From: a virus
Taxonomy: Duplodnaviria; Heunggongvirae; Uroviricota; Caudoviricetes
Strand: one strand, 5' to 3'
IMG/VR virus record: IMGVR_UViG_2721755728_000002
DNA length: 55,396 bases
Shown in pieces: positions 5,731 to 48,098 of this stretch. The stretch's first letter is position 1. Each line of letters begins with the position of its first letter. Under the pieces are notes generated by a model that saw nothing but the letters and a program-made list of their open reading frames with translations, did no database searches and was not told the DNA's origin. The position numbers and the translations under genes were made by a program.

Positions 5731-6021
5731 TTAACAGGTTTTGTTTGGATACTGTCTTCGTGAGTGAACTACATTTACGATCTCGATGTTAGATGCTGTT
5801 ACTCGGTAAAGTATTATGTAGTTAGGATGAGTCACTATCTCACGAAGACTTGGAACTCTTTCGCTCGGTGGGTACAGATAAGGGTGTTCAGTAAGTGACA
5901 AAACTGATGTTTCAATGCGTATTTTTAGTCTACGTGCAGCGGGAGGGTTTTCCTTAGCAATATAGGCTACGATCTGACGTAAATCATCACGTGCAGAAGG
6001 TAGCCATAAAATGGGCAGCAT
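5731..6021 (-). CDS. Type II toxin, ParE/RelE family
   Basis: 96 aa; ParE/RelE-like sequence (ILYRV...NIEIVNVVHSRRQYP); stop/start overlap with upstream small gene. Confidence 0.8.
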   Translation of the reverse strand: MLPILWLPSARDDLRQIVAYIAKENPPAARRLKIRIETSVLSLTEHPYLYPPSERVPSLREIVTHPNYIILYRVTASNIEIVNVVHSRRQYPNKTC

Positions 6022-6212
6022 TACTCACTCCTGTTCGTTGCAGCTAATTGAGCAATAAGGTTTTCCATTTCAGCCATTACTTCGTCATGTGGAATTGCAG
6101 GACGGGGATCTGAGAGGCTTGCTGCCACTTTGGTTCGCAACCATTCGTTATAGCTGTTTTCTTGTTCGACTGTTTCAAATTCAGAAATTATCGGGGAAAG
6201 GGCTGTACTCAT
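6021..6212 (-). CDS. Type II antitoxin (ParD-like) partner
   Basis: 63 aa acidic protein immediately upstream of the ParE-like gene with 1-nt overlap. Confidence 0.65.
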   Translation of the reverse strand: MSTALSPIISEFETVEQENSYNEWLRTKVAASLSDPRPAIPHDEVMAEMENLIAQLAATNRSE

Positions 6213-6229: not shown

Positions 6230-6730
6230 TTAGGCGCGACGACCCTTTTGCGCAGCTAGCCATCGCGCAACGATTTCTTCAATTGATTCTTTTTTCTCCT
6301 TCATTTCCTTAAGCATTTTCTCTTTATCTTCTTTGGGGAAAGCCCTGAACGTCTGGAGCAAATCCCGCTCCATGGGGTCTATATTAAACGGAAGTTCGTT
6401 TTCCGATTGTTCCATATCTGCAGATATAGTGACAACATTGTCCTCCCCAGATTCTTGGGGATACATCCTTACAATTTGTAACAACTCGGCCATATCTGGT
6501 CTGATTGACTCGGGAGGAACTTGCAGCAACCCTGCGAACTTGATAACAGCCTCAAGATTTAAAGGTGTCTGACCATTTAGATAATGGCTTACAGCTCCCT
6601 GTGTCGAAAATCCCAGAATTTCTGCCGCACGCTCTTGGGTTAACCCTAGTTGATTTTTTTTCGCCGTCCAGATTTCTTTCAGTCTCTGGGCGGCTTGCAG
6701 GTCGATCTCTGACAGGGGTTTTCTTTTCAT
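6230..6730 (-). CDS. CI-like prophage repressor (XRE-family HTH)
   Basis: 166 aa; HTH LTQERAAEILGFSTQGAVSHYLNG; divergent from Cro-like gene across an operator-containing intergenic region. Confidence 0.8.
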   Translation of the reverse strand: MKRKPLSEIDLQAAQRLKEIWTAKKNQLGLTQERAAEILGFSTQGAVSHYLNGQTPLNLEAVIKFAGLLQVPPESIRPDMAELLQIVRMYPQESGEDNVVTISADMEQSENELPFNIDPMERDLLQTFRAFPKEDKEKMLKEMKEKKESIEEIVARWLAAQKGRRA

Positions 6731-6837: not shown

Positions 6838-7113
6838 ATGAATCTTGGAGAATATTTGCATCATTCCGGTATAACTCAGAAGCATTTTGCTGAAATTGTT
6901 GGGGTAACCCAAGGGATGGTAAGCCATGTCATTACCGGACGGGCGAAACTTACGGGGAAAAAAATTTTACGCTGGTGCGAAGCAACAGGCTGGATAGTAA
7001 CTCCGCACGAGATTGATGGCAGTACTTATCCCAACCCAACCGACGGCTTACCTGTCGAGTATCAGGCTAACACACAACCAGAGGCGGGGGTGATTCATGA
7101 AAATCAAGCATGA
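6838..7113 (+). CDS. Cro-like / YdaS-like HTH regulator
   Basis: 91 aa, HTH (ITQKHFAEIVGVTQGMVSHVITG); first gene of the rightward operon. Confidence 0.7.
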   Translation: MNLGEYLHHSGITQKHFAEIVGVTQGMVSHVITGRAKLTGKKILRWCEATGWIVTPHEIDGSTYPNPTDGLPVEYQANTQPEAGVIHENQA

Positions 7114-7522
7114 ACACATCCGCATGGCAATGAATGCCTGGGCGTATCCAGACGGTGAGAAAGTTCCAGCAGCTGAAATAGCCCGGACTTATTTCGAACT
7201 GGGGATGACGTTCCCGGAACTGTACGACGACAGCCATCCGGAAGCCCTGGCCCGTAATACCCAGAAAATTTTCCGCTGGGTAGAGAAAGACACCCCTGAT
7301 GCAGTTGAAAAAATTCAGGCGTTGTTACCAGCGATCGAAAAGGCAATGCCACCTTTGCTGGTGGCCAGAATGCGCAGCCACAGTTCAGCTTATTTTCGGG
7401 AGCTGGTGGAGACGCGGGAGCGACTGGTGAGAGACGCTGATGATTTTGTCGCAGTGGCAATCGCCGGTTTCAATCAGATGAACCGTGGTGGCCCGGCAGG
7501 AAATGCTGTGGCAGTACATTGA
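7097..7522 (+). CDS. YdaT-like regulatory protein (CII position)
   Basis: 141 aa following Cro-like gene with 17-nt overlap; GAGG RBS. Confidence 0.5.
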   Translation: MKIKHEHIRMAMNAWAYPDGEKVPAAEIARTYFELGMTFPELYDDSHPEALARNTQKIFRWVEKDTPDAVEKIQALLPAIEKAMPPLLVARMRSHSSAYFRELVETRERLVRDADDFVAVAIAGFNQMNRGGPAGNAVAVH

Positions 7523-7593
7523 CTGACAATAGCCATATCGAATCGCTTCCGGCAACTCGTGAGTAAAAAGATTCGGTATCAGAAGAGGTGAGT

Positions 7594-8610
7594 ATGGCTA
7601 ACGCCTGGCTCAGATTATGGCATGACATGCCAAATGACCCTAAGTGGCGAACAATTGCCAGGGTGTCAGGGCAGCCAATTGCAACAGTGATGGCAGTGTA
7701 TATCCACCTCCTGGTGAGCGCGTCACGAAATGTCACGCGAGGTCACATTGATGTCACGACAGAAGATTTGGCAAGTGCGCTCGACGTGACAGAAGAGGTA
7801 ATTGATTCAATTTTGCAGACGATGCAGGGGCGGGTACTTGATGGTGATTTAATCACTGGATGGGAAAAACGCCAGGTGCTTAAAGAGGACAACGGCAATA
7901 TTTCGCAAACCGCAAAATCTCCGGCAGAGCGCAAGAGGGCGCAGCGTGAGAGGGAAAGAAAGCGGGAACAAAATGGCGATTGTCACGGCGCGTCACGAAA
8001 TGTCACGCACATGTCACGACAAGTCACGACAGATAAAGATACAGATACAGAATTAAACCCCACACATAACGCGCGCATGCGCGAGAGTGCTCCAACCGGT
8101 GAGTCGCATGGTGCGCCGTTGCAGACAGCCGAACCTGAATACCTGGACGGCCTGAGCGAACCGATCGGGAAATTTTCGATGACTACTGTCTGGCAGCCGT
8201 CGTCGGATTTTCGACAACGGGCAGCAGTGTGGGGTATGGCTCTGCCTGAGCCGGAATTTACACCTGCAGAGCTTGCCGCATTCCGGGATTACTGGATGGC
8301 GGAGGGGAAGGTTTTCACGCAGGTTCAGTGGGAGCAGAAATTTGCCCGCCACGTGCAGCACGTCAGGGCACAGGTAAAACCAGTCAGCAAGGGGGTAAGC
8401 CATGCAGCATCAGGTGGCACGGCATCACGGGCAGTTCAGGAAATCCGGGCAGCACGCGAACAGTGGGAACGTGACAACGGATTTATCAGCAACGGAAACG
8501 GCCTGGAAGCTGTGGGAGCTTATGGGGGAGGTGTATTCGAACCGCTGGACACAGAAGAACGGGGCCGCACCTTCGAAGCTCTGGATTGCCCAGATTGGCG
8601 CGATGACTGA
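7594..8610 (+). CDS. Replication initiator (lambda O-like)
   Basis: Gene preceding the P-like gene; contains two clusters of phased GTCACG iterons; ATG at 7594 with GAGG 5 nt upstream. Confidence 0.65.
   Translation: MANAWLRLWHDMPNDPKWRTIARVSGQPIATVMAVYIHLLVSASRNVTRGHIDVTTEDLASALDVTEEVIDSILQTMQGRVLDGDLITGWEKRQVLKEDNGNISQTAKSPAERKRAQRERERKREQNGDCHGASRNVTHMSRQVTTDKDTDTELNPTHNARMRESAPTGESHGAPLQTAEPEYLDGLSEPIGKFSMTTVWQPSSDFRQRAAVWGMALPEPEFTPAELAAFRDYWMAEGKVFTQVQWEQKFARHVQHVRAQVKPVSKGVSHAASGGTASRAVQEIRAAREQWERDNGFISNGNGLEAVGAYGGGVFEPLDTEERGRTFEALDCPDWRDD
7722..7758. repeat. Iteron cluster 1 (GTCACG/GTCACA x4, ~10-11 bp phasing)
   Basis: Repeats at 7722, 7732, 7742, 7753 inside the O-like gene. 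Confidence 0.55.
7982..8029. repeat. Iteron cluster 2 (GTCACG x5, ~10-11 bp phasing)
   Basis: Repeats at 7982, 7992, 8002, 8013, 8024 inside the O-like gene. Confidence 0.55.
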
Positions 8611-9064
8611 ACAGCAAATCCGGCTGGTCTGCCGTCAGTGCATGGACCGCTGCCGGGCGGGTGAAACGTGGCCCCCGGACCTGGCTGAGTTTGTTGCACT
8701 GATTTCGGAGAGTGGGGCAAATCCATTTGGTCTTACGGTGGATGCAGTGATGGAAGAGTACCGGCGCTGGCGCAATGAATCCTGGCGATACGACGGGAGT
8801 GATAAATACCCGTGGCCACAGCCTGTGCTGTACCACATCTGCCTCGAAATGCGTACCAGAGGGATTGAGCGCCAGATGACGCAGGGTGAGTTAAAACGAC
8901 TTGCGGAACGGCAACTGACGAAATGGGCAAAGCATGTTGGTAACGGGATGAGTGTTCCGCCAGTGCGACGACAACTGGAAGGGGCGAAACACCCGCAAGG
9001 GCCAACGCCAATTGAACGGCTGAAACAGGAATACGAACGCCGGAAGGCAGCTGGTTTTATTTGA
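8402..9064 (+). CDS. Replication protein P-like (helicase loader)
   Basis: Colinear with lambda P (FVALISESGANPFGL..., YPWPQPVLYHICLEMR vs lambda YPWKSNAHYWLVTNLYQNMR); start uncertain (8402, 8522 or 8603, the last overlapping the O stop as ATGACTGA). Confidence 0.7.
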   Translation: MQHQVARHHGQFRKSGQHANSGNVTTDLSATETAWKLWELMGEVYSNRWTQKNGAAPSKLWIAQIGAMTEQQIRLVCRQCMDRCRAGETWPPDLAEFVALISESGANPFGLTVDAVMEEYRRWRNESWRYDGSDKYPWPQPVLYHICLEMRTRGIERQMTQGELKRLAERQLTKWAKHVGNGMSVPPVRRQLEGAKHPQGPTPIERLKQEYERRKAAGFI

Positions 9065-9097
9065 ATCTGAGAAACGATTTTGTCGGAGGAAATATTA

Positions 9098-9868
9098 ATG
9101 GAAACCGTATTTGACGCACTGAAAGCACTGAAAAGAGCCTCTTCACAGGTAGTGGCGGCCAGCCTTGGAATCAGTCGTGAAGAGGCTGTCAACGAGCTGT
9201 GGGAACTCAAAAGAAATGGCGTCGTTGATAAAACTGGTCACACCTGGTTTCTGGCTGGCGAAGGTGAATCCCGGGTAACCGAAGAGCGGCCAGTAAAATC
9301 TGAAGCACAGGATATGCTGACCGGGGAGGTCGAACAAAAAGTTACCGCAGACATGATGATTGAGTTTATCGGTCAGGATGGGGCTAAAACGTGTGAGGAA
9401 CTGGCGGGTAAGTTCGGTGTCAGTACTCGCAAGGTTGCTTCCACGCTGGCGGTGGTAACCGCAACGGGGCGGCTGGCACGCGTTAATCAGAACGGTAAAT
9501 TTCGTTACTGCATGCCGGGCGATAATTTACCAGCAGAGCCGAAAGCCGCGCTGGTAACGGAAAGTGATGGTAAGGCCTTTCCTCAGCCAGCAGGTGCTGC
9601 GTTACCAGTCCGGGAAGCCGCAACACAGGAAGAAATTAAAACAGAAACTGTGGCGGACATTGTGCAGCCGTTGCCATCGTTTACCGAAACGCAAGCAGAT
9701 GAGCTGATTTTTCCGTCCCTTCGCAGGGCAAACCTGGCGCTGCGCAGGGCGAAAAGTGATGTTCAGAAGTGGGAGCGAGTCTGCGCCGCGCTGCGGGAGC
9801 TGAACAAGCACCGGGATATTGTTCGACAGATTACTGATTCTTCCCGCCGTGTTGTATCGGAAAAGTGA
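9098..9868 (+). CDS. Hypothetical phage protein (DUF1627-like)
   Basis: ORF with GGAGGA RBS 7 nt before ATG 9098 (track start 9080 is TTG). Confidence 0.5.
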   Translation: METVFDALKALKRASSQVVAASLGISREEAVNELWELKRNGVVDKTGHTWFLAGEGESRVTEERPVKSEAQDMLTGEVEQKVTADMMIEFIGQDGAKTCEELAGKFGVSTRKVASTLAVVTATGRLARVNQNGKFRYCMPGDNLPAEPKAALVTESDGKAFPQPAGAALPVREAATQEEIKTETVADIVQPLPSFTETQADELIFPSLRRANLALRRAKSDVQKWERVCAALRELNKHRDIVRQITDSSRRVVSEK

Positions 9869-9883
9869 TTGCCGGAGGCGCTT

Positions 9884-10306
9884 ATGGCAAAAGTATTTAC
9901 ACAAGAAGAGCGGGAAAAAATTAAAGGGCAGGTTGTTGAACTAGTACGCCGGAGTGGGCGCGAGACGTTACGGCAACTGGAAGCCAAGACAGGTGCGACA
10001 AGATATCTGATGAGCGTTCTCGCCAGAGAGCTGGTTGCCAGTGGCGATGTATACAACTCTGGTTACGGGTTATTCCCGTCTGAACAGGCTCGTAAGGACT
10101 GGCAAAATGCCCGCAAAAAACTATCTAGGGCAAAGGTGAAGAAACCATCTGTGGTTGATCCGGATCTTATCTGGTCATTACCAGACGGAGAAATACGCCG
10201 CTACGACAGGCGTCTGAACATAATCTGTAGCGAGTGCCGGAAGAGCGAAGCTATGCAGCGTGTACTGGCTTTCTATCAGGGTAATTTTCAGAAGGTGCTG
10301 TTGTGA
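9884..10306 (+). CDS. Hypothetical phage protein
   Basis: ORF with GGAGG RBS before ATG 9884 (track start 9869 is TTG). Confidence 0.5.
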   Translation: MAKVFTQEEREKIKGQVVELVRRSGRETLRQLEAKTGATRYLMSVLARELVASGDVYNSGYGLFPSEQARKDWQNARKKLSRAKVKKPSVVDPDLIWSLPDGEIRRYDRRLNIICSECRKSEAMQRVLAFYQGNFQKVLL

Positions 10307-10316
10307 GCCAAATTAA

Positions 10317-11511
<1,195 letters not shown>

Positions 11512-40370: not shown

Positions 40371-40948
40371 ACACGGCAGCGGAAGCCATCCGTGCCCTGT
40401 CGATGCAGATGCCGGGATTCCGCCGTCAGATGAACGAAGGCTGGTACCAGATACGTATTGCCGGTGAAGACATGGCACCGGAGGCGGTGTATGCCCGCCT
40501 TCACGAACAACTGGGTGAGGGAACGGTCATCCATATTGTGCCGCGACTGGCCGGTGCAGGGAAAGGCGGACTGCAGATTGTGCTGGGGGCGGCAGCCATC
40601 GTGGGCTCTTTCTTCACCGCCGGCGCAACGATGGCGTTATGGGGTTCAGCCCTGGCAGCCGGCGGTTTTTCTGCCACCACGATGCTGTTTTCACTGGGGG
40701 CCAGCATGATACTGGGCGGTGTGGCCCAGATGCTGGCCCCGAAGGCAAAGACGCCGGAGTACAAAAGTACGGATAACGGTAAACAGAACACGTATTTTTC
40801 GTCACTGGACAACATGATTGCCCAGGGGAACCCGATGCCGGTGCCTTACGGTGAAATGCTGGTTGGCTCCCGGCGAATCTCCCAGGACATCAGCACCCGT
40901 GATGAAGGTGGTGGCGGGAAGGTGGTGGTTATCGGGCGGCAGGGGTAA
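40268..40948 (+). CDS. I: Tail assembly protein I
   Basis: Colinear with lambda I (ARICLYGDLQRFGRR..., GAAAIAGSFFTAGAT..., TDNGKQNTYFSSLDNM). Confidence 0.85.
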   Translation: MATTNAFCLASPPLARICLHGDLQRFGRRLSLYVNTAAEAIRALSMQMPGFRRQMNEGWYQIRIAGEDMAPEAVYARLHEQLGEGTVIHIVPRLAGAGKGGLQIVLGAAAIVGSFFTAGATMALWGSALAAGGFSATTMLFSLGASMILGGVAQMLAPKAKTPEYKSTDNGKQNTYFSSLDNMIAQGNPMPVPYGEMLVGSRRISQDISTRDEGGGGKVVVIGRQG

Positions 40949-43900
40949 AGCATAAAAAAATCCCGCAGTGTATGGAGGCTGCGGGAACAGAAAATGAAGA
41001 TTAACCACAGGGGGTTTTGTTTTTATTGGCCCGAAAAAACTGTAACGCCCGGGAATGATATCTGCCACGGGGCGTACAGAAAATGTGAAGAAATTCAGAA
41101 ATTTTATTCCGTCATGACACAGGCACCCTCCGGGGTGCCTGTCGTTTTTGGGGCATAAACAGATTCAGACATCAGACAGGAGAGGGGGACAGAGTGGGTA
41201 AAGGTGGCGGCAGGGCGCACACGCCGGTAGAGGCAAAGGACAATCTTAAGTCCACGCAGATGATGAGCGTGATTGACGCCATTGGTGAAGGGCCGATTGA
41301 AGGTCCGGTGAAGGGGCTGCAGAGTATTCTGGTGAACAAAACCCCGCTGACGGACACGGACGGTAATCCTGTGATACATGGTGTGACAGCGGTCTGGCGC
41401 GCCGGGGAGCAGGAGCAGACACCGCCGGAAGGTTTTGAGTCATCCGGCTCTGAAACCGCACTGGGCGTGGAAGTGACGAAGGCAAAGCCGGTGACGCGCA
41501 CCATTACGTCCGCGAACATTGACCGCCTGCGGGTCACCTTCGGGGTGCAGTCACTGGTGCAGACCACCTCACAGGGTGACCGTAACCCGGCATCCGTCCG
41601 CCTGCTGATTCAGCTGCAGCGTAACGGTAACTGGGTGACGGAAAAGGATGTCACCATTAACGGCAAGACCACCTCACAGTTCCTCGCTTCGGTGATTCTG
41701 GATAATCTGCCTCCCCGCCCCTTTAACATCCGGATGGTCAGGGAGACGGCGGACAGCACCACGGACCAGCTGCAGAATAAGACGCTCTGGTCGTCATACA
41801 CCGAAATCATCGATGTGAAACAGTGCTACCCGAACACGGCGATTGTGGGGCTGCAGGTGGATGCGGAGCAGTTTGGCGGTCAGCAGATGACGGTGAACTA
41901 CCATATCCGAGGTCGCATCATCCAGGTGCCGTCAAACTATGACCCGGAAAAACGCACGTACAGCGGCATCTGGGACGGCAGCCTGAAACCGGCATACAGC
42001 AACAACCCGGCCTGGTGCCTGTGGGACATGCTGACTCACCCGCGCTACGGCATGGGAAAACGTCTGGTGGCGGCGGATGTTGACAAGTGGGCGCTGTATG
42101 CCATTGCGCAGTACTGCGACCAGACGGTCCCGGATGGTTTCGGGGGCACAGAGCCGCGGATGACCTTTAATGCGTACCTGTCACAACAGCGTAAGGCATG
42201 GGATGTGCTCAGTGATTTCTGCTCGGCGATGCGCTGTATGCCGGTATGGAACGGCCAGACGCTGACGTTCGTTCAGGACCGCCCGTCGGATGTGGTGTGG
42301 CCGTACACCAACTGCGATGTGGTGGTGGATGATAACGGCGTGGGGTTTCGCTACAGCTTCAGCGCCCTGAAGGACCGCCACACGGCGGTGGAGGTGAATT
42401 ACACCGACCCGCAGAACGGCTGGCAGACCTCCACGGAACTGGTGGAAGACCCGGAAGCCATACTGCGCTACGGGCGCAACCTGCTGAAGATGGATGCGTT
42501 CGGTTGCACCAGTCGCGGTCAGGCCCACCGTGCCGGGCTGTGGGTGATAAAGACCGGACTGCTGGAAACGCAGACGGTGGATTTCACGCTCGGGTCACAG
42601 GGGCTGCGTCACACACCCGGTGACATTATTGAAATCTGTGATAACGACTATGCCGGGACCATGACCGGCGGACGTATCCTGTCCATCGATGCCGCCAGCC
42701 GCACCCTGACACTGGACCGTGAGGTGACCCTGCCGGAGACAGGTGCCGCCACGGTGAACCTGATTAACGGCAGCGGTAAGCCGGTGAGCGTGGCCATCAC
42801 TGCACACCCCGCGCCGGACCGGATACAGGTCAGCACCCTGCCTGATGGTGTGGAGACATACGGTGTATGGGGACTCTCCCTGCCGTCACTGCGTCGTCGC
42901 CTGTTCCGCTGTGTCTCCATCCGGGAAAACACGGACGGCACCTTTGCCATCACGGCGGTGCAGCACGTACCGGAAAAAGAAGCCATTGTGGATAACGGGG
43001 CCAGCTTTGAGCCACTGTCCGGTTCGCTGAACAGCGTCATCCCGCCGGCTGTGCAGCACCTGACGGTGGAGGTGAGCGCGGCTGACGGTCAGTATCTGGC
43101 ACAGGCGAAATGGGACACGCCGCGGGTGGTGAAGGGTGTGCGCTTCAGTCTGCGCCTGACCAGCGGAAGCGGAGAAGACAGCCGTCTGGTGACCACCGCC
43201 ATCACTGCGGATACAGAGCACCGTTTCAGTGGTCTGCCGCCCGGGGAATACACCCTGACAGTCAGGGCAATTAACAGTTATGGCCAGCAGGGCGAACCGG
43301 CCACCACCACGTTCAGGATTAATGCACCTGCGGTACCCGCCACGATTGAGCTGACACCGGGCTATTTTCAGATAACAGCGGTCCCGCGTCTTGCGGTGTA
43401 TGACCCGACGGTACAGTTTGAGTTCTGGTTTTCGGAGACAAAAATCGCAGACATATCTCAGGTGGAAACCTCTGCCCGTTATCTGGGGACCGGCAGTCAG
43501 TGGAGTGTATCCGGCCCGCACATTAAGCCCGGGAAGGATTTCTGGTTTTACGTGCGCAGCGTCAACCTGGTGGGGAAATCTGCGTTTGTGGAAGTCAGCG
43601 GGCAGCCCAGCAATGATGGTGAAGGGTATCTGGAATTTTTCCGGGAAAAAATAGGAAAACTGCATCTGGCTCAGGGGCTGTGGGAGCTGATAGACAACAG
43701 CCAGCTTGCGGATGAGATGGCGGAGATGAAGACCACCATCACCGAAACCCGCAATGAAATCACACAGACGGTCAGTAAAACGCTGGAGGACCAGAGCGCC
43801 ACCATACAGCAGATACAGCGCGTGCAGAAGGACACAAATGATGACCTTGCTGCACTTTACATGCTGAAGGTACAGAAAACAAAAAATGCCGGTGAAGACA

Positions 43901-46900
43901 TGGCACCGGAGGCGGTGTATGCCCGCCTTCACGAACAACTGGGTGAGGGAACGGTCATCCATATTGTGCCGCGACTGGCCGGTGCAGGGAAAGGCGGACT
44001 GCAGATTGTGCTGGGGGCGGCAGCCATCGTGGGCTCTTTCTTCACCGCCGGCGCAACGATGGCGTTATGGGGTTCAGCCCTGGCAGCCGGCGGTTTTTCT
44101 GCCACCACGATGCTGTTTTCACTGGGGGCCAGCATGATACTGGGCGGTGTGGCCCAGATGCTGGCCCCGAAGGCAAAGACGCCGGAGTACAAAAGTACGG
44201 ATAACGGTAAACAGAACACGTATTTTTCGTCACTGGACAACATGATTGCCCAGGGGAACCCGATGCCGGTGCCTTACGGTGAAATGCTGGTTGGCTCCCG
44301 GCGAATCTCCCAGGACATCAGCACCCGTGATGAAGGTGGTGGCGGGAAGGTGGTGGTTATCGGGCGGCAGGGGTAAAGCATAAAAAAATCCCGCAGTGTA
44401 TGGAGGCTGCGGGAACAGAAAATGAAGATTAACCACAGGGGGTTTTGTTTTTATTGGCCCGAAAAAACTGTAACGCCCGGGAATGATATCTGCCACGGGG
44501 CGTACAGAAAATGTGAAGAAATTCAGAAATTTTATTCCGTCATGACACAGGCACCCTCCGGGGTGCCTGTCGTTTTTGGGGCATAAACAGATTCAGACAT
44601 CAGACAGGAGAGGGGGACAGAGTGGGTAAAGGTGGCGGCAGGGCGCACACGCCGGTAGAGGCAAAGGACAATCTTAAGTCCACGCAGATGATGAGCGTGA
44701 TTGACGCCATTGGTGAAGGGCCGATTGAAGGTCCGGTGAAGGGGCTGCAGAGTATTCTGGTGAACAAAACCCCGCTGACGGACACGGACGGTAATCCTGT
44801 GATACATGGTGTGACAGCGGTCTGGCGCGCCGGGGAGCAGGAGCAGACACCGCCGGAAGGTTTTGAGTCATCCGGCTCTGAAACCGCACTGGGCGTGGAA
44901 GTGACGAAGGCAAAGCCGGTGACGCGCACCATTACGTCCGCGAACATTGACCGCCTGCGGGTCACCTTCGGGGTGCAGTCACTGGTGCAGACCACCTCAC
45001 AGGGTGACCGTAACCCGGCATCCGTCCGCCTGCTGATTCAGCTGCAGCGTAACGGTAACTGGGTGACGGAAAAGGATGTCACCATTAACGGCAAGACCAC
45101 CTCACAGTTCCTCGCTTCGGTGATTCTGGATAATCTGCCTCCCCGCCCCTTTAACATCCGGATGGTCAGGGAGACGGCGGACAGCACCACGGACCAGCTG
45201 CAGAATAAGACGCTCTGGTCGTCATACACCGAAATCATCGATGTGAAACAGTGCTACCCGAACACGGCGATTGTGGGGCTGCAGGTGGATGCGGAGCAGT
45301 TTGGCGGTCAGCAGATGACGGTGAACTACCATATCCGAGGTCGCATCATCCAGGTGCCGTCAAACTATGACCCGGAAAAACGCACGTACAGCGGCATCTG
45401 GGACGGCAGCCTGAAACCGGCATACAGCAACAACCCGGCCTGGTGCCTGTGGGACATGCTGACTCACCCGCGCTACGGCATGGGAAAACGTCTGGTGGCG
45501 GCGGATGTTGACAAGTGGGCGCTGTATGCCATTGCGCAGTACTGCGACCAGACGGTCCCGGATGGTTTCGGGGGCACAGAGCCGCGGATGACCTTTAATG
45601 CGTACCTGTCACAACAGCGTAAGGCATGGGATGTGCTCAGTGATTTCTGCTCGGCGATGCGCTGTATGCCGGTATGGAACGGCCAGACGCTGACGTTCGT
45701 TCAGGACCGCCCGTCGGATGTGGTGTGGCCGTACACCAACTGCGATGTGGTGGTGGATGATAACGGCGTGGGGTTTCGCTACAGCTTCAGCGCCCTGAAG
45801 GACCGCCACACGGCGGTGGAGGTGAATTACACCGACCCGCAGAACGGCTGGCAGACCTCCACGGAACTGGTGGAAGACCCGGAAGCCATACTGCGCTACG
45901 GGCGCAACCTGCTGAAGATGGATGCGTTCGGTTGCACCAGTCGCGGTCAGGCCCACCGTGCCGGGCTGTGGGTGATAAAGACCGGACTGCTGGAAACGCA
46001 GACGGTGGATTTCACGCTCGGGTCACAGGGGCTGCGTCACACACCCGGTGACATTATTGAAATCTGTGATAACGACTATGCCGGGACCATGACCGGCGGA
46101 CGTATCCTGTCCATCGATGCCGCCAGCCGCACCCTGACACTGGACCGTGAGGTGACCCTGCCGGAGACAGGTGCCGCCACGGTGAACCTGATTAACGGCA
46201 GCGGTAAGCCGGTGAGCGTGGCCATCACTGCACACCCCGCGCCGGACCGGATACAGGTCAGCACCCTGCCTGATGGTGTGGAGACATACGGTGTATGGGG
46301 ACTCTCCCTGCCGTCACTGCGTCGTCGCCTGTTCCGCTGTGTCTCCATCCGGGAAAACACGGACGGCACCTTTGCCATCACGGCGGTGCAGCACGTACCG
46401 GAAAAAGAAGCCATTGTGGATAACGGGGCCAGCTTTGAGCCACTGTCCGGTTCGCTGAACAGCGTCATCCCGCCGGCTGTGCAGCACCTGACGGTGGAGG
46501 TGAGCGCGGCTGACGGTCAGTATCTGGCACAGGCGAAATGGGACACGCCGCGGGTGGTGAAGGGTGTGCGCTTCAGTCTGCGCCTGACCAACGGAAGCGG
46601 AGAAGACAGCCGTCTGGTGACCACCGCCATCACTGCGGATACAGAGCATCGTTTCAGTGGTCTGCCGCTCGGGGAATACACCCTGACAGTCAGGGCAATT
46701 AACAGGTATGGCCAGCAGGGCGAACCGGCCACCACCACCTTCCGGATTAACGCGCCAGCAAAACCCGCCACCATTGAACTGACGCCGGGGTATTTTCAGA
46801 TAACGGCGGTCCCGCGTCTTGCGGTGTATGACCCGACGGTACAGTTTGAGTTCTGGTTTTCGGAGGCAAAAATCGCAGACACATCTCAGGTGGAAACCTC

Positions 46901-47318
46901 TGCCCGTTATCTGGGGACCGGCAGTCAGTGGAGTGTATCCGGCCCGCACATTAAGCCCGGGAAGGATTTCTGGTTTTACGTGCGCAGCGTCAACCTGGTG
47001 GGGAAATCTGCGTTTGTGGAAGTCAGCGGGCAGCCCAGCAATGATGGTGAAGGGTATCTGGAATTTTTCCGGGAAAAAATAGGAAAACTGCATCTGGCTC
47101 AGGGGCTATGGGAGCTGATAGACAACAGCCAGCTTGCGGATGAGATGGCGGAGATGAAGACCACCATCACCGAAACCCGCAATGAAATCACACAGACGGT
47201 CAGTAAAACGCTGGAAGACCAGAGCGCCACCATTCAGCAGATACAGCGCGTGCAGAAGGACACAAATGATGACCTGGCTGCGCTGTACATGCTGAAGGTT
47301 CAAAAAACGAAAGACGGC
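40463..47318 (+). repeat. Tandem direct repeat, 2 x ~3428 bp (I 3' part + intergenic + J 5' ~2.7 kb)
   Basis: Six-frame ORFs recur with 3428-bp offset (e.g. 40458/43886, 41194/44622); proximal ~2.7 kb appears identical, distal ~730 bp differs at scattered positions. Confidence 0.8.
41194..44376 (+). CDS. Chimeric ORF: J N-terminal ~890 aa fused in frame to I C-terminal ~170 aa
   Basis: Lambda J-like through ...LKVQKTK, then switches to I sequence AGEDMAPEAVYARL... and ends with the I C-terminus. Confidence 0.7.
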   Translation: MGKGGGRAHTPVEAKDNLKSTQMMSVIDAIGEGPIEGPVKGLQSILVNKTPLTDTDGNPVIHGVTAVWRAGEQEQTPPEGFESSGSETALGVEVTKAKPVTRTITSANIDRLRVTFGVQSLVQTTSQGDRNPASVRLLIQLQRNGNWVTEKDVTINGKTTSQFLASVILDNLPPRPFNIRMVRETADSTTDQLQNKTLWSSYTEIIDVKQCYPNTAIVGLQVDAEQFGGQQMTVNYHIRGRIIQVPSNYDPEKRTYSGIWDGSLKPAYSNNPAWCLWDMLTHPRYGMGKRLVAADVDKWALYAIAQYCDQTVPDGFGGTEPRMTFNAYLSQQRKAWDVLSDFCSAMRCMPVWNGQTLTFVQDRPSDVVWPYTNCDVVVDDNGVGFRYSFSALKDRHTAVEVNYTDPQNGWQTSTELVEDPEAILRYGRNLLKMDAFGCTSRGQAHRAGLWVIKTGLLETQTVDFTLGSQGLRHTPGDIIEICDNDYAGTMTGGRILSIDAASRTLTLDREVTLPETGAATVNLINGSGKPVSVAITAHPAPDRIQVSTLPDGVETYGVWGLSLPSLRRRLFRCVSIRENTDGTFAITAVQHVPEKEAIVDNGASFEPLSGSLNSVIPPAVQHLTVEVSAADGQYLAQAKWDTPRVVKGVRFSLRLTSGSGEDSRLVTTAITADTEHRFSGLPPGEYTLTVRAINSYGQQGEPATTTFRINAPAVPATIELTPGYFQITAVPRLAVYDPTVQFEFWFSETKIADISQVETSARYLGTGSQWSVSGPHIKPGKDFWFYVRSVNLVGKSAFVEVSGQPSNDGEGYLEFFREKIGKLHLAQGLWELIDNSQLADEMAEMKTTITETRNEITQTVSKTLEDQSATIQQIQRVQKDTNDDLAALYMLKVQKTKNAGEDMAPEAVYARLHEQLGEGTVIHIVPRLAGAGKGGLQIVLGAAAIVGSFFTAGATMALWGSALAAGGFSATTMLFSLGASMILGGVAQMLAPKAKTPEYKSTDNGKQNTYFSSLDNMIAQGNPMPVPYGEMLVGSRRISQDISTRDEGGGGKVVVIGRQG

Positions 47319-48098
47319 ATACCCTATGTTGCCGGGATTGGAGCGGGGATTGAGGATACTGATGGCCAGTCACTGAGCAACATACTGCTGCTGGCTGACC
47401 GTATCGCGATGATAAATCCGGAGAGCGGCAACAGCACGCCGTTATTTGTGGCGCAGGGGAATCAGCTGTTCATGAACGACGTGTTCCTGAAACGACTGTT
47501 TGCGGTGAGTATCACGTCATCCGGCAACCCCCCGACGTTTTCCCTGACGCCGGAAGGGAAGCTGACAGCCAGGAACGCGGATATCAGCGGAGCAATTACC
47601 GCGAATACCGGCACGCTCAATAATGTCACCATTAACGAGAACTGTGTCATCAGAGGGAAACTGTCTGCAAACCAGATTGAAGGCGACCTGGTGAAGACGG
47701 TGGGGAAAGCCTTTCCCCGGAATAACAGTTATGCCAGCGGGACGGTAACCGTCACAGTTTACGATGACCAGGGCTTCGACCGGCAGATTATCATTCCCCC
47801 GGTGCTGTTTCGCGGGACGAAACACCAGAATTTCAACAGCCCGAATCAGCAGTCGTACTGGTATTCCACCTGTAAGCTGCAGGTGCTGAAGAACGGGGTT
47901 GAGATTTTCCATGAACCGGCAACGGATGTCAGCCGGGTGTTCTCATCGGTGATAGATATGCCGGCAGGGCGGGGTCATGTCACCCTGACGTTTAATGTGT
48001 CGTCGGCCGGTGCGAACAACTGGACGCCGACAACGTACATCAGTGATTTACTGGTTGTGGTCATGAAAAAATCCACGGCAGGGATCAGTATCAGCTGA
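44622..48098 (+). CDS. J: Tail tip / host specificity protein J
   Basis: 1158 aa colinear with lambda J along its full length; GTG start with AGGAGAGGGGG RBS. Confidence 0.9.

Follow-up and report, generated by a model that had tools for sequence, protein, structure and literature searches.

The tailed-phage DNA analyzed here, a stretch of 55,396 nucleotides (IMG/VR record IMGVR_UViG_2721755728_000002, class Caudoviricetes; hereafter, the window), contains a replication initiator gene whose coding sequence holds two arrays of a short, helically phased repeat. This organization probably represents an iteron origin in the style of lambda and SPP1, located inside the initiator gene. The second array (array 2) and the AT-rich tract beside it would form the core of the origin, and the first (array 1) would serve as an auxiliary initiator-binding array rather than as a second origin. 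The elements concerned are the following.

7594–8610, + strand: replication initiator gene (338 amino acids)
7722–7758, + strand: array 1, with GTCACG at 7722, 7732, and 7753 and a GTCACA variant at 7742–7747
7785–7790, − strand: lone inverted copy, reading CGTGAC on the + strand, 27 base pairs (bp) past array 1
7982–8028, + strand: array 2, with five direct GTCACG copies at 7982, 7992, 8002, 8013, and 8023
8029–8057: A-rich, AT-rich tract of low stability, with GATAAA-GATACA-GATACA at 8032–8049; the proposed unwinding element
8072–8083: perfect 12-bp G+C palindrome CGCGCATGCGCG, just past the AT-rich tract
8603–9064, + strand: lambda-P-family gene, encoding a putative DnaB helicase loader

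Successive copies start 10, 10, and 11 bp apart in array 1 and 10, 10, 11, and 10 bp apart in array 2, and the arrays lie 260 bp from start to start with a gap of about 225 bp between them. A first-pass annotation of the window had counted four GTCACG copies in the first array and five in the second. Its positions, spacing, and distance hold, with the correction that the fourth copy assigned to array 1 is the GTCACA variant, which leaves three exact copies there. Over both strands of the 55.4-kilobase (kb) window, GTCACG occurs 28 times, where 25.5 occurrences are expected. Because this count is ordinary, the signal lies in the clustering: 9 of the 28 matches fall within about 310 bp and 5 within 50 bp, whereas the maxima in 200 first-order Markov simulations were 4 copies per 320 bp and 3 copies per 50 bp. 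Poisson estimates for the clustering, corrected for window number, are ~1e-8 or lower, and GTCACG ranks first in clustering among all hexamers of the window. A motif scan of the kind suggested in the first-pass annotation found GTCACG nowhere else in the window equally frequent or equally phased. The only other phased GTCAC pair, TGTCACGgccaGTCACG, lies on the − strand at 27324–27339 within a coding region; its two copies start at 27325 and 27335, 10 bp apart, with a rough chance probability of ~0.06.

The lone inverted copy is kept at gene offset 192 in most related loci of the GTCAC type. Its role is uncertain because it supplies the codons for D-V-T at the start of helix 3, and these residues are also conserved as protein. 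A 19-nucleotide stretch, GCGTCACGAAATGTCACGC, which includes two spacers, is identical at 7720–7738 and 7990–8008; this suggests recent exchange (gene conversion) between the arrays in the Escherichia coli lineage. Within positions 7000–9200 there are no DnaA boxes with one mismatch or fewer. Promoter and terminator consensus matches within the origin are present in chance number, and the sole promoter-like match in array 2 is made of the repeats themselves.

The repeats are maintained as DNA elements, independent of the protein code. The N-terminal 155 amino acids of the initiator have more than 600 relatives, and a scan restricted to one genome per species yielded 58 loci from Gamma-, Beta-, and Alphaproteobacteria, Acidobacteria, and one planctomycete. 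In about 20 loci with at least 60% amino acid identity, GTCAC stands at gene offsets 128, 138, 148, and 159 (array 1) and again at offsets of about 388, 398, 408, and sometimes 417 (array 2), in genomes that span Entomomonas (34% GC) to Stenotrophomonas (63% GC). Codon use was compared in 20 sequences from hosts of 34–63% GC; the columns were defined by the amino acid alignment, so the test is not circular. Conserved residues outside the hexamers have a mean codon entropy of 1.73 bits (39 columns), whereas hexamer-encoded residues have a mean of 0.17 bits (10 iteron columns, S141 not among them; Mann-Whitney p = 2e-6). In array 1, the codons are TCA for S44 (19/20), GTC for V47 (20/20), ACG for T48 (20/20), GGT for G50 (20/20), CAC for H51 (19/19), GTC for V54 (20/20), and ACG for T55 (19/20), and in array 2 they are CAC for H131 (17/17), TCA for S141 (19/19), and GTC for V144 (19/19). 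R49, which falls between two hexamers, is encoded by four codons. Likewise, pairwise identity is 0.96 inside the hexamers, compared with 0.42 at third positions outside them. In the 19 homologues compared, saturation of synonymous sites extends over all of the sequence but the hexamers.

Steps of 10 or 11 bp shift the reading frame from copy to copy, so that all three frames are represented among the hexamers: G-TCA-CG gives Ser-Arg, GTC-ACG gives Val-Thr, and xGT-CAC-G gives Gly-His or Cys-His. The frozen codons and the three-frame reading together indicate that the DNA imposes most of the peptide ASRNVTRGHxDVT. At ~90% identity, E. coli relatives have invariant hexamers and variable spacers. 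Copy number is also variable: in O157 and E. albertii relatives, array 1 has six copies, two units having been gained through a 21-bp in-frame indel, and in distant homologues array 2 has three to five copies at the same place.

Distant homologues that lack GTCACG have another hexamer in its place, and the replacement affects both arrays together. The GTAACG type is found in Pantoea, Enterobacter, Marinobacter, Sphingomonas, and an acidobacterium; the CGAACGC type occurs in Janthinobacterium, Massilia, Acidovorax, Variovorax, Terracidiphilus, and a Gemmataceae genome, among others; and GTGACGC is present in one metagenome-assembled genome. NACG(C) is common to all of these variants. No base is conserved beyond the hexamer in an extended iteron consensus, and the sites are direct repeats. 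A motif-free search, which took the best 5-mer phased at 9–12 bp in nucleotides 100–520 of each gene, recovered two arrays of one 5-mer in 44 of 54 loci, with a mean of 4.35 phased pairs per gene segment; control windows taken from these loci averaged 0.83 (maximum 2). The presence of two arrays, which the first-pass annotation had regarded as unusual, is thus the rule in this initiator family.

The concerted nature of these changes is evident in close relatives. At six homologous sites distributed over both arrays, the hexamer is GTCACG in Erwinia and GTAACG in Pantoea and Enterobacter, and both synonymous and non-synonymous changes are involved. In three loci of this group (L024, L025, and L026, from Pantoea, Erwinia, and Enterobacter), sites at offsets of ~159–180 and ~411–430 are fused into perfect 10-bp palindromes, GTAACGTTAC or GTCACGTGAC, and Erwinia has overlapping units at 5-bp spacing, GTCACGTCACGTCACG. 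Judged from their sequence, these fused sites would imply a different binding geometry in the subgroup. Other loci depart from the common layout: L036 has seven copies in array 2 only, L044 and L059 have a single array of palindromic CTACGTAG units, and in the Gemmataceae locus L052, array 1 has moved ~60 nucleotides downstream. This shift, together with the absence of array 1 from L036, L044, and L059, indicates that what is needed is a nearby second array and not a fixed position.

The initiator is the only open reading frame (ORF) family common to all 56 loci compared for gene content; cI-like genes are present in 28, P-like genes in 23, Cro-like genes in 19, and YdaT genes in 13. Its C-terminal domain and the downstream partner vary as well, from a DnaT-like domain with lambda P to a Toprim/DnaB-type primase-helicase and other combinations. 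Because only the initiator is shared and its C-terminal domain and partner are variable, its N-terminal domain is most simply taken as the putative reader of the sites.

The first-pass annotation had proposed a search for an AT-rich unwinding element beside each array; a putative one is present at array 2 and none at array 1. Directly past the last array 2 hexamer lies GACAGATAAAGATACAGATACAGAATTAAA, where GC content drops to 0.35. The least stable 30-mer of positions 7000–9200, intergenic DNA included, is 8028–8057, with a free energy (dG) of −32.1 compared with a mean of −42.5 and a standard deviation (SD) of 3.0. Family-wide, DNA stability falls 2.7–2.9 SD below the locus mean in the 30-mer that follows array 2, and within the first 800 nucleotides of the gene, the 30-mer of lowest stability comes right after this array in 39 of 44 loci. 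No comparable tract is conserved after array 1 in the family (at most 0.64 SD); in the window itself, a moderately AT-rich 30-mer (7786–7815, dG −35.0) lies ~30 bp past array 1. The tract after array 2 is usually (GATAAA/GATACA)n, that is, (GATAMA)n. Its codons are strongly biased (GAT 60 vs. GAC 4, AAA 60 vs. AAG 9), compared with roughly even use elsewhere, and GAT and AAA are near-fixed in the tract even in hosts of 60% GC or more.

The tract is also a mosaic joint between the N- and C-terminal modules of the gene, with boundaries at 8031–8051. Phages Tritos and Evi, other phages, and many E. coli prophages match nucleotides 1–464 of the gene (to 8051) at 99% identity and then diverge. Conversely, Rac-type ydaU genes match nucleotides 444–1023 (from 8031) at ~88% identity and have a different N-terminal domain, DUF1376, with no GTCACG. 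The N-terminal domain and both arrays are therefore inherited together, and the C-terminal domain and P travel with another N-terminal domain in Rac YdaU. Lambdoid O genes are split into a specificity module and a loader module, and the mosaic of this initiator matches that division.

The relatives on both sides of this joint have features of their own. Tritos-type prophages (L003, 2507–4040) have the same N-terminal domain and both arrays; their C-terminal half has no Pfam match, a DUF977 gene is directly next, and no recognizable helicase loader is adjacent. In the Rac-SA53 ydaU gene (L064), nucleotides ~148–460 contain three copies of TGTTCAA and one inverted copy, which shortly precede the shared GATACA tract; by their sequence and placement, these are weak candidate sites of the Rac origin oriJ. 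The G+C palindrome at 8072–8083 travels with the C-terminal module. In the same place, the palindrome of strain S1-KEN is also perfect but differs in sequence (CGCGCACGTGCGCG), and 6 bp are deleted in O157 strain 1130, which hints that the symmetry at this position, and not the sequence, is kept.

The initiator protein is predicted by structural modeling to consist of a winged-helix N-terminal domain (amino acids 1 to ~97), a basic helix (110–127), a disordered linker (~131–188), and a DnaT-like ssDNA-binding C-terminal domain (~190–262). An identical gene is present in E. coli 2013C-4991, where the RefSeq start is the ATG equivalent to 7594. The AlphaFold model of the N-terminal domain is confident (predicted local distance difference test score ~85–97) and comprises helices at 2–14, 16–25, and 29–45, a loop at 46–55, helices at 56–63 and 67–77, and a beta hairpin at 78–88. 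In Foldseek searches, the full-length model gave only the DnaT domain as a significant match; the N-terminal domain model alone revealed winged-helix matches of a DnaD N-terminal domain/CAP-like fold, the closest of which, by lowest root-mean-square deviation, is the DnaD N-terminal domain. A search of solved structures with a profile of this domain gave no match. The C-terminal domain matches the Pfam DnaT-like family (PF17948; amino acids 194–260) at 62.2 bits against a cut-off of 25, as well as structures 4ou6 and 6aeq in Foldseek (51–58% identity, E ~1e-5), and DnaT is the sole Pfam match of the whole protein at E <= 0.01. For the N-terminal domain, Pfam at E <= 10 returns only sub-threshold Phage_rep_org_N, HTH_Crp_2, and DFF-C, and the N-terminal 125 amino acids align end to end, below the cut-offs, with the phage replisome organizer N-terminal models (PF09681/TIGR01714).

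The modeled helix, loop, and linker limits place array 1 in codons of the folded domain and array 2 in codons of the linker. Array 1 encodes amino acids 43–55, at the end of helix 1 and in the helix 1–helix 2 loop of the winged helix, and array 2 encodes amino acids 130–145, within the disordered linker. The lambda-P-family gene downstream matches Pfam Phage_lambda_P (PF06992) at 56.7 bits against a cut-off of 26 and PHROG 109, "P-like helicase loader," at E 1e-53, and is named "replication protein P" in RefSeq. Its start overlaps the initiator stop codon (ATGACTGA, 8603–8610), which suggests translational coupling of both replication genes.

In the proposed mechanism, the winged-helix N-terminal domain would bind one hexamer per helical turn, head to tail, so that a protein filament could form along a single face of the duplex at each array. 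Winged helices of the PhoB/OmpR type bind direct repeats at 10–11-bp spacing, and one-per-turn binding is sterically possible. The complex at array 2 would destabilize or open the adjacent (GATAMA)n tract at 8029–8057, and the DnaT-like C-terminal domain, together with the downstream lambda-P-like protein, would bring in the host DnaB helicase. Array 1, placed ~225 bp upstream in the code for a permissive loop, would bind the same protein as an auxiliary array and would most likely cooperate with array 2 through looping or wrapping of the intervening DNA.

Several points weigh against this interpretation. We infer initiator binding, its stoichiometry, melting, helicase recruitment, origin activity, and the role of array 1 from sequence. 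The N-terminal domain of DnaD serves oligomerization rather than sequence-specific DNA binding, and since it is the closest match to the modeled domain, the fold alone is no proof that the initiator reads hexamers. Classical iterons are 19–22 bp long, and a 6-bp core repeated at 10–11 bp is much smaller. Array 1 is not detectable in 10 of 54 loci and is thus not essential everywhere. Moreover, the putative recognition helix and wing are nearly identical across lineages with different hexamers, which leaves the variable first three bases without a clear reader. Lastly, the motif shared by both arrays could stem in part from gene conversion, as the 19-nucleotide identity in the window would indicate.

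With regard to the reader of the hexamer, either recognition is limited to the constant ACG(C) or the iteron-encoded loop itself recognizes the variable bases. No residues outside this loop clearly track the iteron type. Within it, GTCACG encodes Gly-His (GGT CAC) and GTAACG encodes Gly-Asn (GGT AAC), and because the hexamer is read in three frames there, a change of the variable base alters residues of the DNA-binding domain. In the Pantoea/Erwinia group, an iteron copy falls in the first turn of the putative recognition helix, with Asn or His at that residue. Array 1 might conceivably have two functions, as a binding site and as code for a surface loop that matters to the specificity of its own binder, with site and reader changing together, an idea that we put forward as distinctly improbable. 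If these residues did contact the variable base, new origin specificities, as well as incompatibility between related phages, would have a built-in way of arising.

The function of array 1 is the point at which other explanations come closest to the one proposed. Array 2 and the AT-rich tract could be the origin, with array 1 exerting negative control, either through autoregulation that blocks transcription of the initiator and P genes or through pairing or titration, as at P1 incA and F incC; a control role is known for the second iteron array of both plasmids. Such a role fits the lack of an unwinding tract at array 1, its position early in the initiator coding region, which would put bound protein in the path of RNA polymerase, and its being dispensed with in L036, L044, and L059, as expected of a modulator. 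However, a phage in lytic growth or after induction has little obvious need to limit its copy number, and a positive architectural role would account equally well for why position, orientation, and copy number are conserved across phyla. We favor a helper role for array 1 over a control role and consider negative control unlikely. The first-pass annotation had itself offered two possibilities, two initiator-binding regions or a duplicated origin. The former agrees with the data, since both arrays are conserved and have the same hexamer in each lineage. The latter, in the form of two independent or duplicated origins with one per array, could draw on the same hexamers in the same orientation at both arrays and on the moderately AT-rich 30-mer that lies past array 1 in the window. 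Yet the stability deficit after array 1 is at most 0.64 SD compared with 2.7–2.9 SD after array 2, array 1 falls in folded-domain codons, and the module joint, with its (GATAMA)n tract, is found at array 2 only; furthermore, the two-array layout, present in 44 of 54 loci, is ancient, which speaks against recent duplication. We regard two origins as very unlikely.

Equally slim is the chance that the hexamers are bound by another factor, such as a host protein, the repressor, Cro, or YdaT, for a purpose other than replication. A near-invariant DNA-binding domain alongside a variable hexamer would be in keeping with a different reader. Against this, no gene besides the initiator is common to all loci, there is no near-consensus DnaA box in the region, and, for a host factor, the hosts come from several phyla, and the hexamer differs among related enterobacterial hosts. 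That a repeated or conserved peptide gave rise to the repeats as a side effect, or that they arose by chance, has a negligible probability. ASRNVT does occur at amino acids 43–48 and 133–138, SRNVT thus being present twice, and its residues are conserved in homologues; nonetheless, synonymous codons are frozen only in the hexamers, these are read in three frames, spacer codons are free (four for R49), and the motif switches in concert through synonymous and non-synonymous changes alike. A protein repeat or chance is ruled out by the codon test and the simulations.

Origins within initiator genes are a known kind, and the window can be compared with several. In lambda, the iterons and an AT-rich tract lie in the middle of O (PMC7466680). 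The window resembles lambda in that the putative origin is placed mid-gene, at the junction of N-terminal DNA-binding and C-terminal loader-interacting modules, with repeated putative initiator-binding sites, an AT-rich tract on one side, and a lambda P family gene next to it; the N-terminal domain and iterons are also inherited as one specificity module. The lambda iterons are ~19 bp long with internal dyad symmetry. In contrast, the repeats described here are 6-bp direct repeats one helical turn apart with no internal inverted symmetry, and they form two arrays ~225 bp apart, one of them in the code for the DNA-binding domain of a protein that has a DnaT-like C-terminal domain. The earlier suggestion of a lambda-like origin is accordingly upheld for the layout (phased repeats, AT-rich tract, and module boundary) and fails for homology with lambda O, as the initiator has no Pfam match to Phage_rep_O, the lambda O family. 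Shiga toxin (Stx) phages include variants with six iterons, and their iteron number is reported to vary, adding residues to the protein (PMC7466680); array copy number in the window family likewise varies between relatives, adding residues.

SPP1 offers a further parallel. Its oriL, in gene 38, has AB boxes, which are direct repeats bound by G38P, and an adjacent AT-rich unwinding element (PMC6316719, PMC5737612). The window resembles SPP1 in its putative origin within the initiator gene, a DnaD-like N-terminal fold, and a putative helicase-loader gene next to the initiator; the N-terminal domain aligns end to end with the replisome organizer models, though below threshold. The window differs in that the second G38P-binding region of SPP1, oriR, is kilobases away in non-coding DNA, whereas array 1 is ~225 bp away in the same gene, and in that the sequence similarity is below threshold. 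No distant second array of the oriR type is present in the window, where the only two-copy pair, at 27325/27335, is at about chance level; it is just conceivable that this pair is a remote secondary site of that kind.

Among plasmids, P1 (incC/incA) and F (incB/incC) have two arrays of one repeat, one beside the unwinding region and the other modulating initiation. The window likewise has two same-repeat arrays, of which only one is next to a putative unwinding region. The plasmid arrays differ in flanking the rep gene, in having ~19-bp repeats at about two-turn spacing, and in serving the copy-number control of a stable replicon. Finally, the lytic origin oriL of phage P1 has been postulated inside the repL coding sequence and was dissected by synonymous substitutions (PMC9948254). 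It resembles the window in its postulated place within the initiator coding sequence; the protein family is unrelated, and the critical element identified there was an AT-rich region rather than phased hexamer arrays.

The genes around the initiator are arranged as a lambdoid immunity and replication region, integrated beside potC. Those upstream are the following.

5731–6212, − strand: RelE/ParE toxin and RelB antitoxin pair, beside the cI-like repressor gene
6230–6730, − strand: cI-like repressor gene
6838–7113: Cro-like gene
7097–7522: YdaT-family gene

A toxin-antitoxin system in a cryptic O157:H7 prophage is reportedly described in one paper. Downstream of the P-like gene are DUF1627 and DUF977 genes, the latter at 9869–10306. 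Just past the DUF977 gene, an ORF of 338 amino acids (10349–11365) presumably encodes an IS5-type transposase. In a strain with a 100% identical initiator gene, an IS3 family element is found further upstream, within the DUF1627 gene. Elsewhere in the window, positions 40451–47299 contain a tandem duplication of ~3.43 kb (offset 3428 bp, 99.1% identity over 3421 bp) that covers most of the tail-tip J gene. The ORF at 41194–44376 is J-like and lacks the C-terminal receptor-binding domain, and the ORF at 44622–48098 is a full J with it; the duplication could be real or an assembly artefact.

An origin within the initiator gene is thus nothing new in itself, as lambda and SPP1 attest. Three features appear to be undescribed: the two-array layout with one array in the code for the DNA-binding domain, the 6-bp repeat at one-turn spacing, and the sharing of a lineage-specific hexamer type by both arrays throughout the family. 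Searches of open-access papers, including those on Rac oriJ, on ydaU/ydaV, and on the "Eru" replication types of Stx phages, turned up no description of these repeats or of an origin in this initiator family. The N-terminal domain is encoded in 25 phage records, none of which is a classical, well-studied phage, and the family is without a studied member. It is nonetheless widespread: about 2,500 of 5,426 complete E. coli genomes, O157:H7 included, have a prophage match to either part of the gene, 657 of them at full length, and relatives extend from Pseudomonas to Acidobacteria. For this family, the analysis provides a testable origin map, namely two arrays of 6-bp sites at one-turn intervals and, after them, a (GATAMA)n tract. 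It also provides an unusually clean case of a coding sequence constrained by overlapping DNA sites in three frames, by which "conserved" initiator residues may be re-read as conserved for the DNA. The map may be of use in predicting which prophages are still able to replicate after induction and in understanding incompatibility and mosaic exchange among prophage replication modules.

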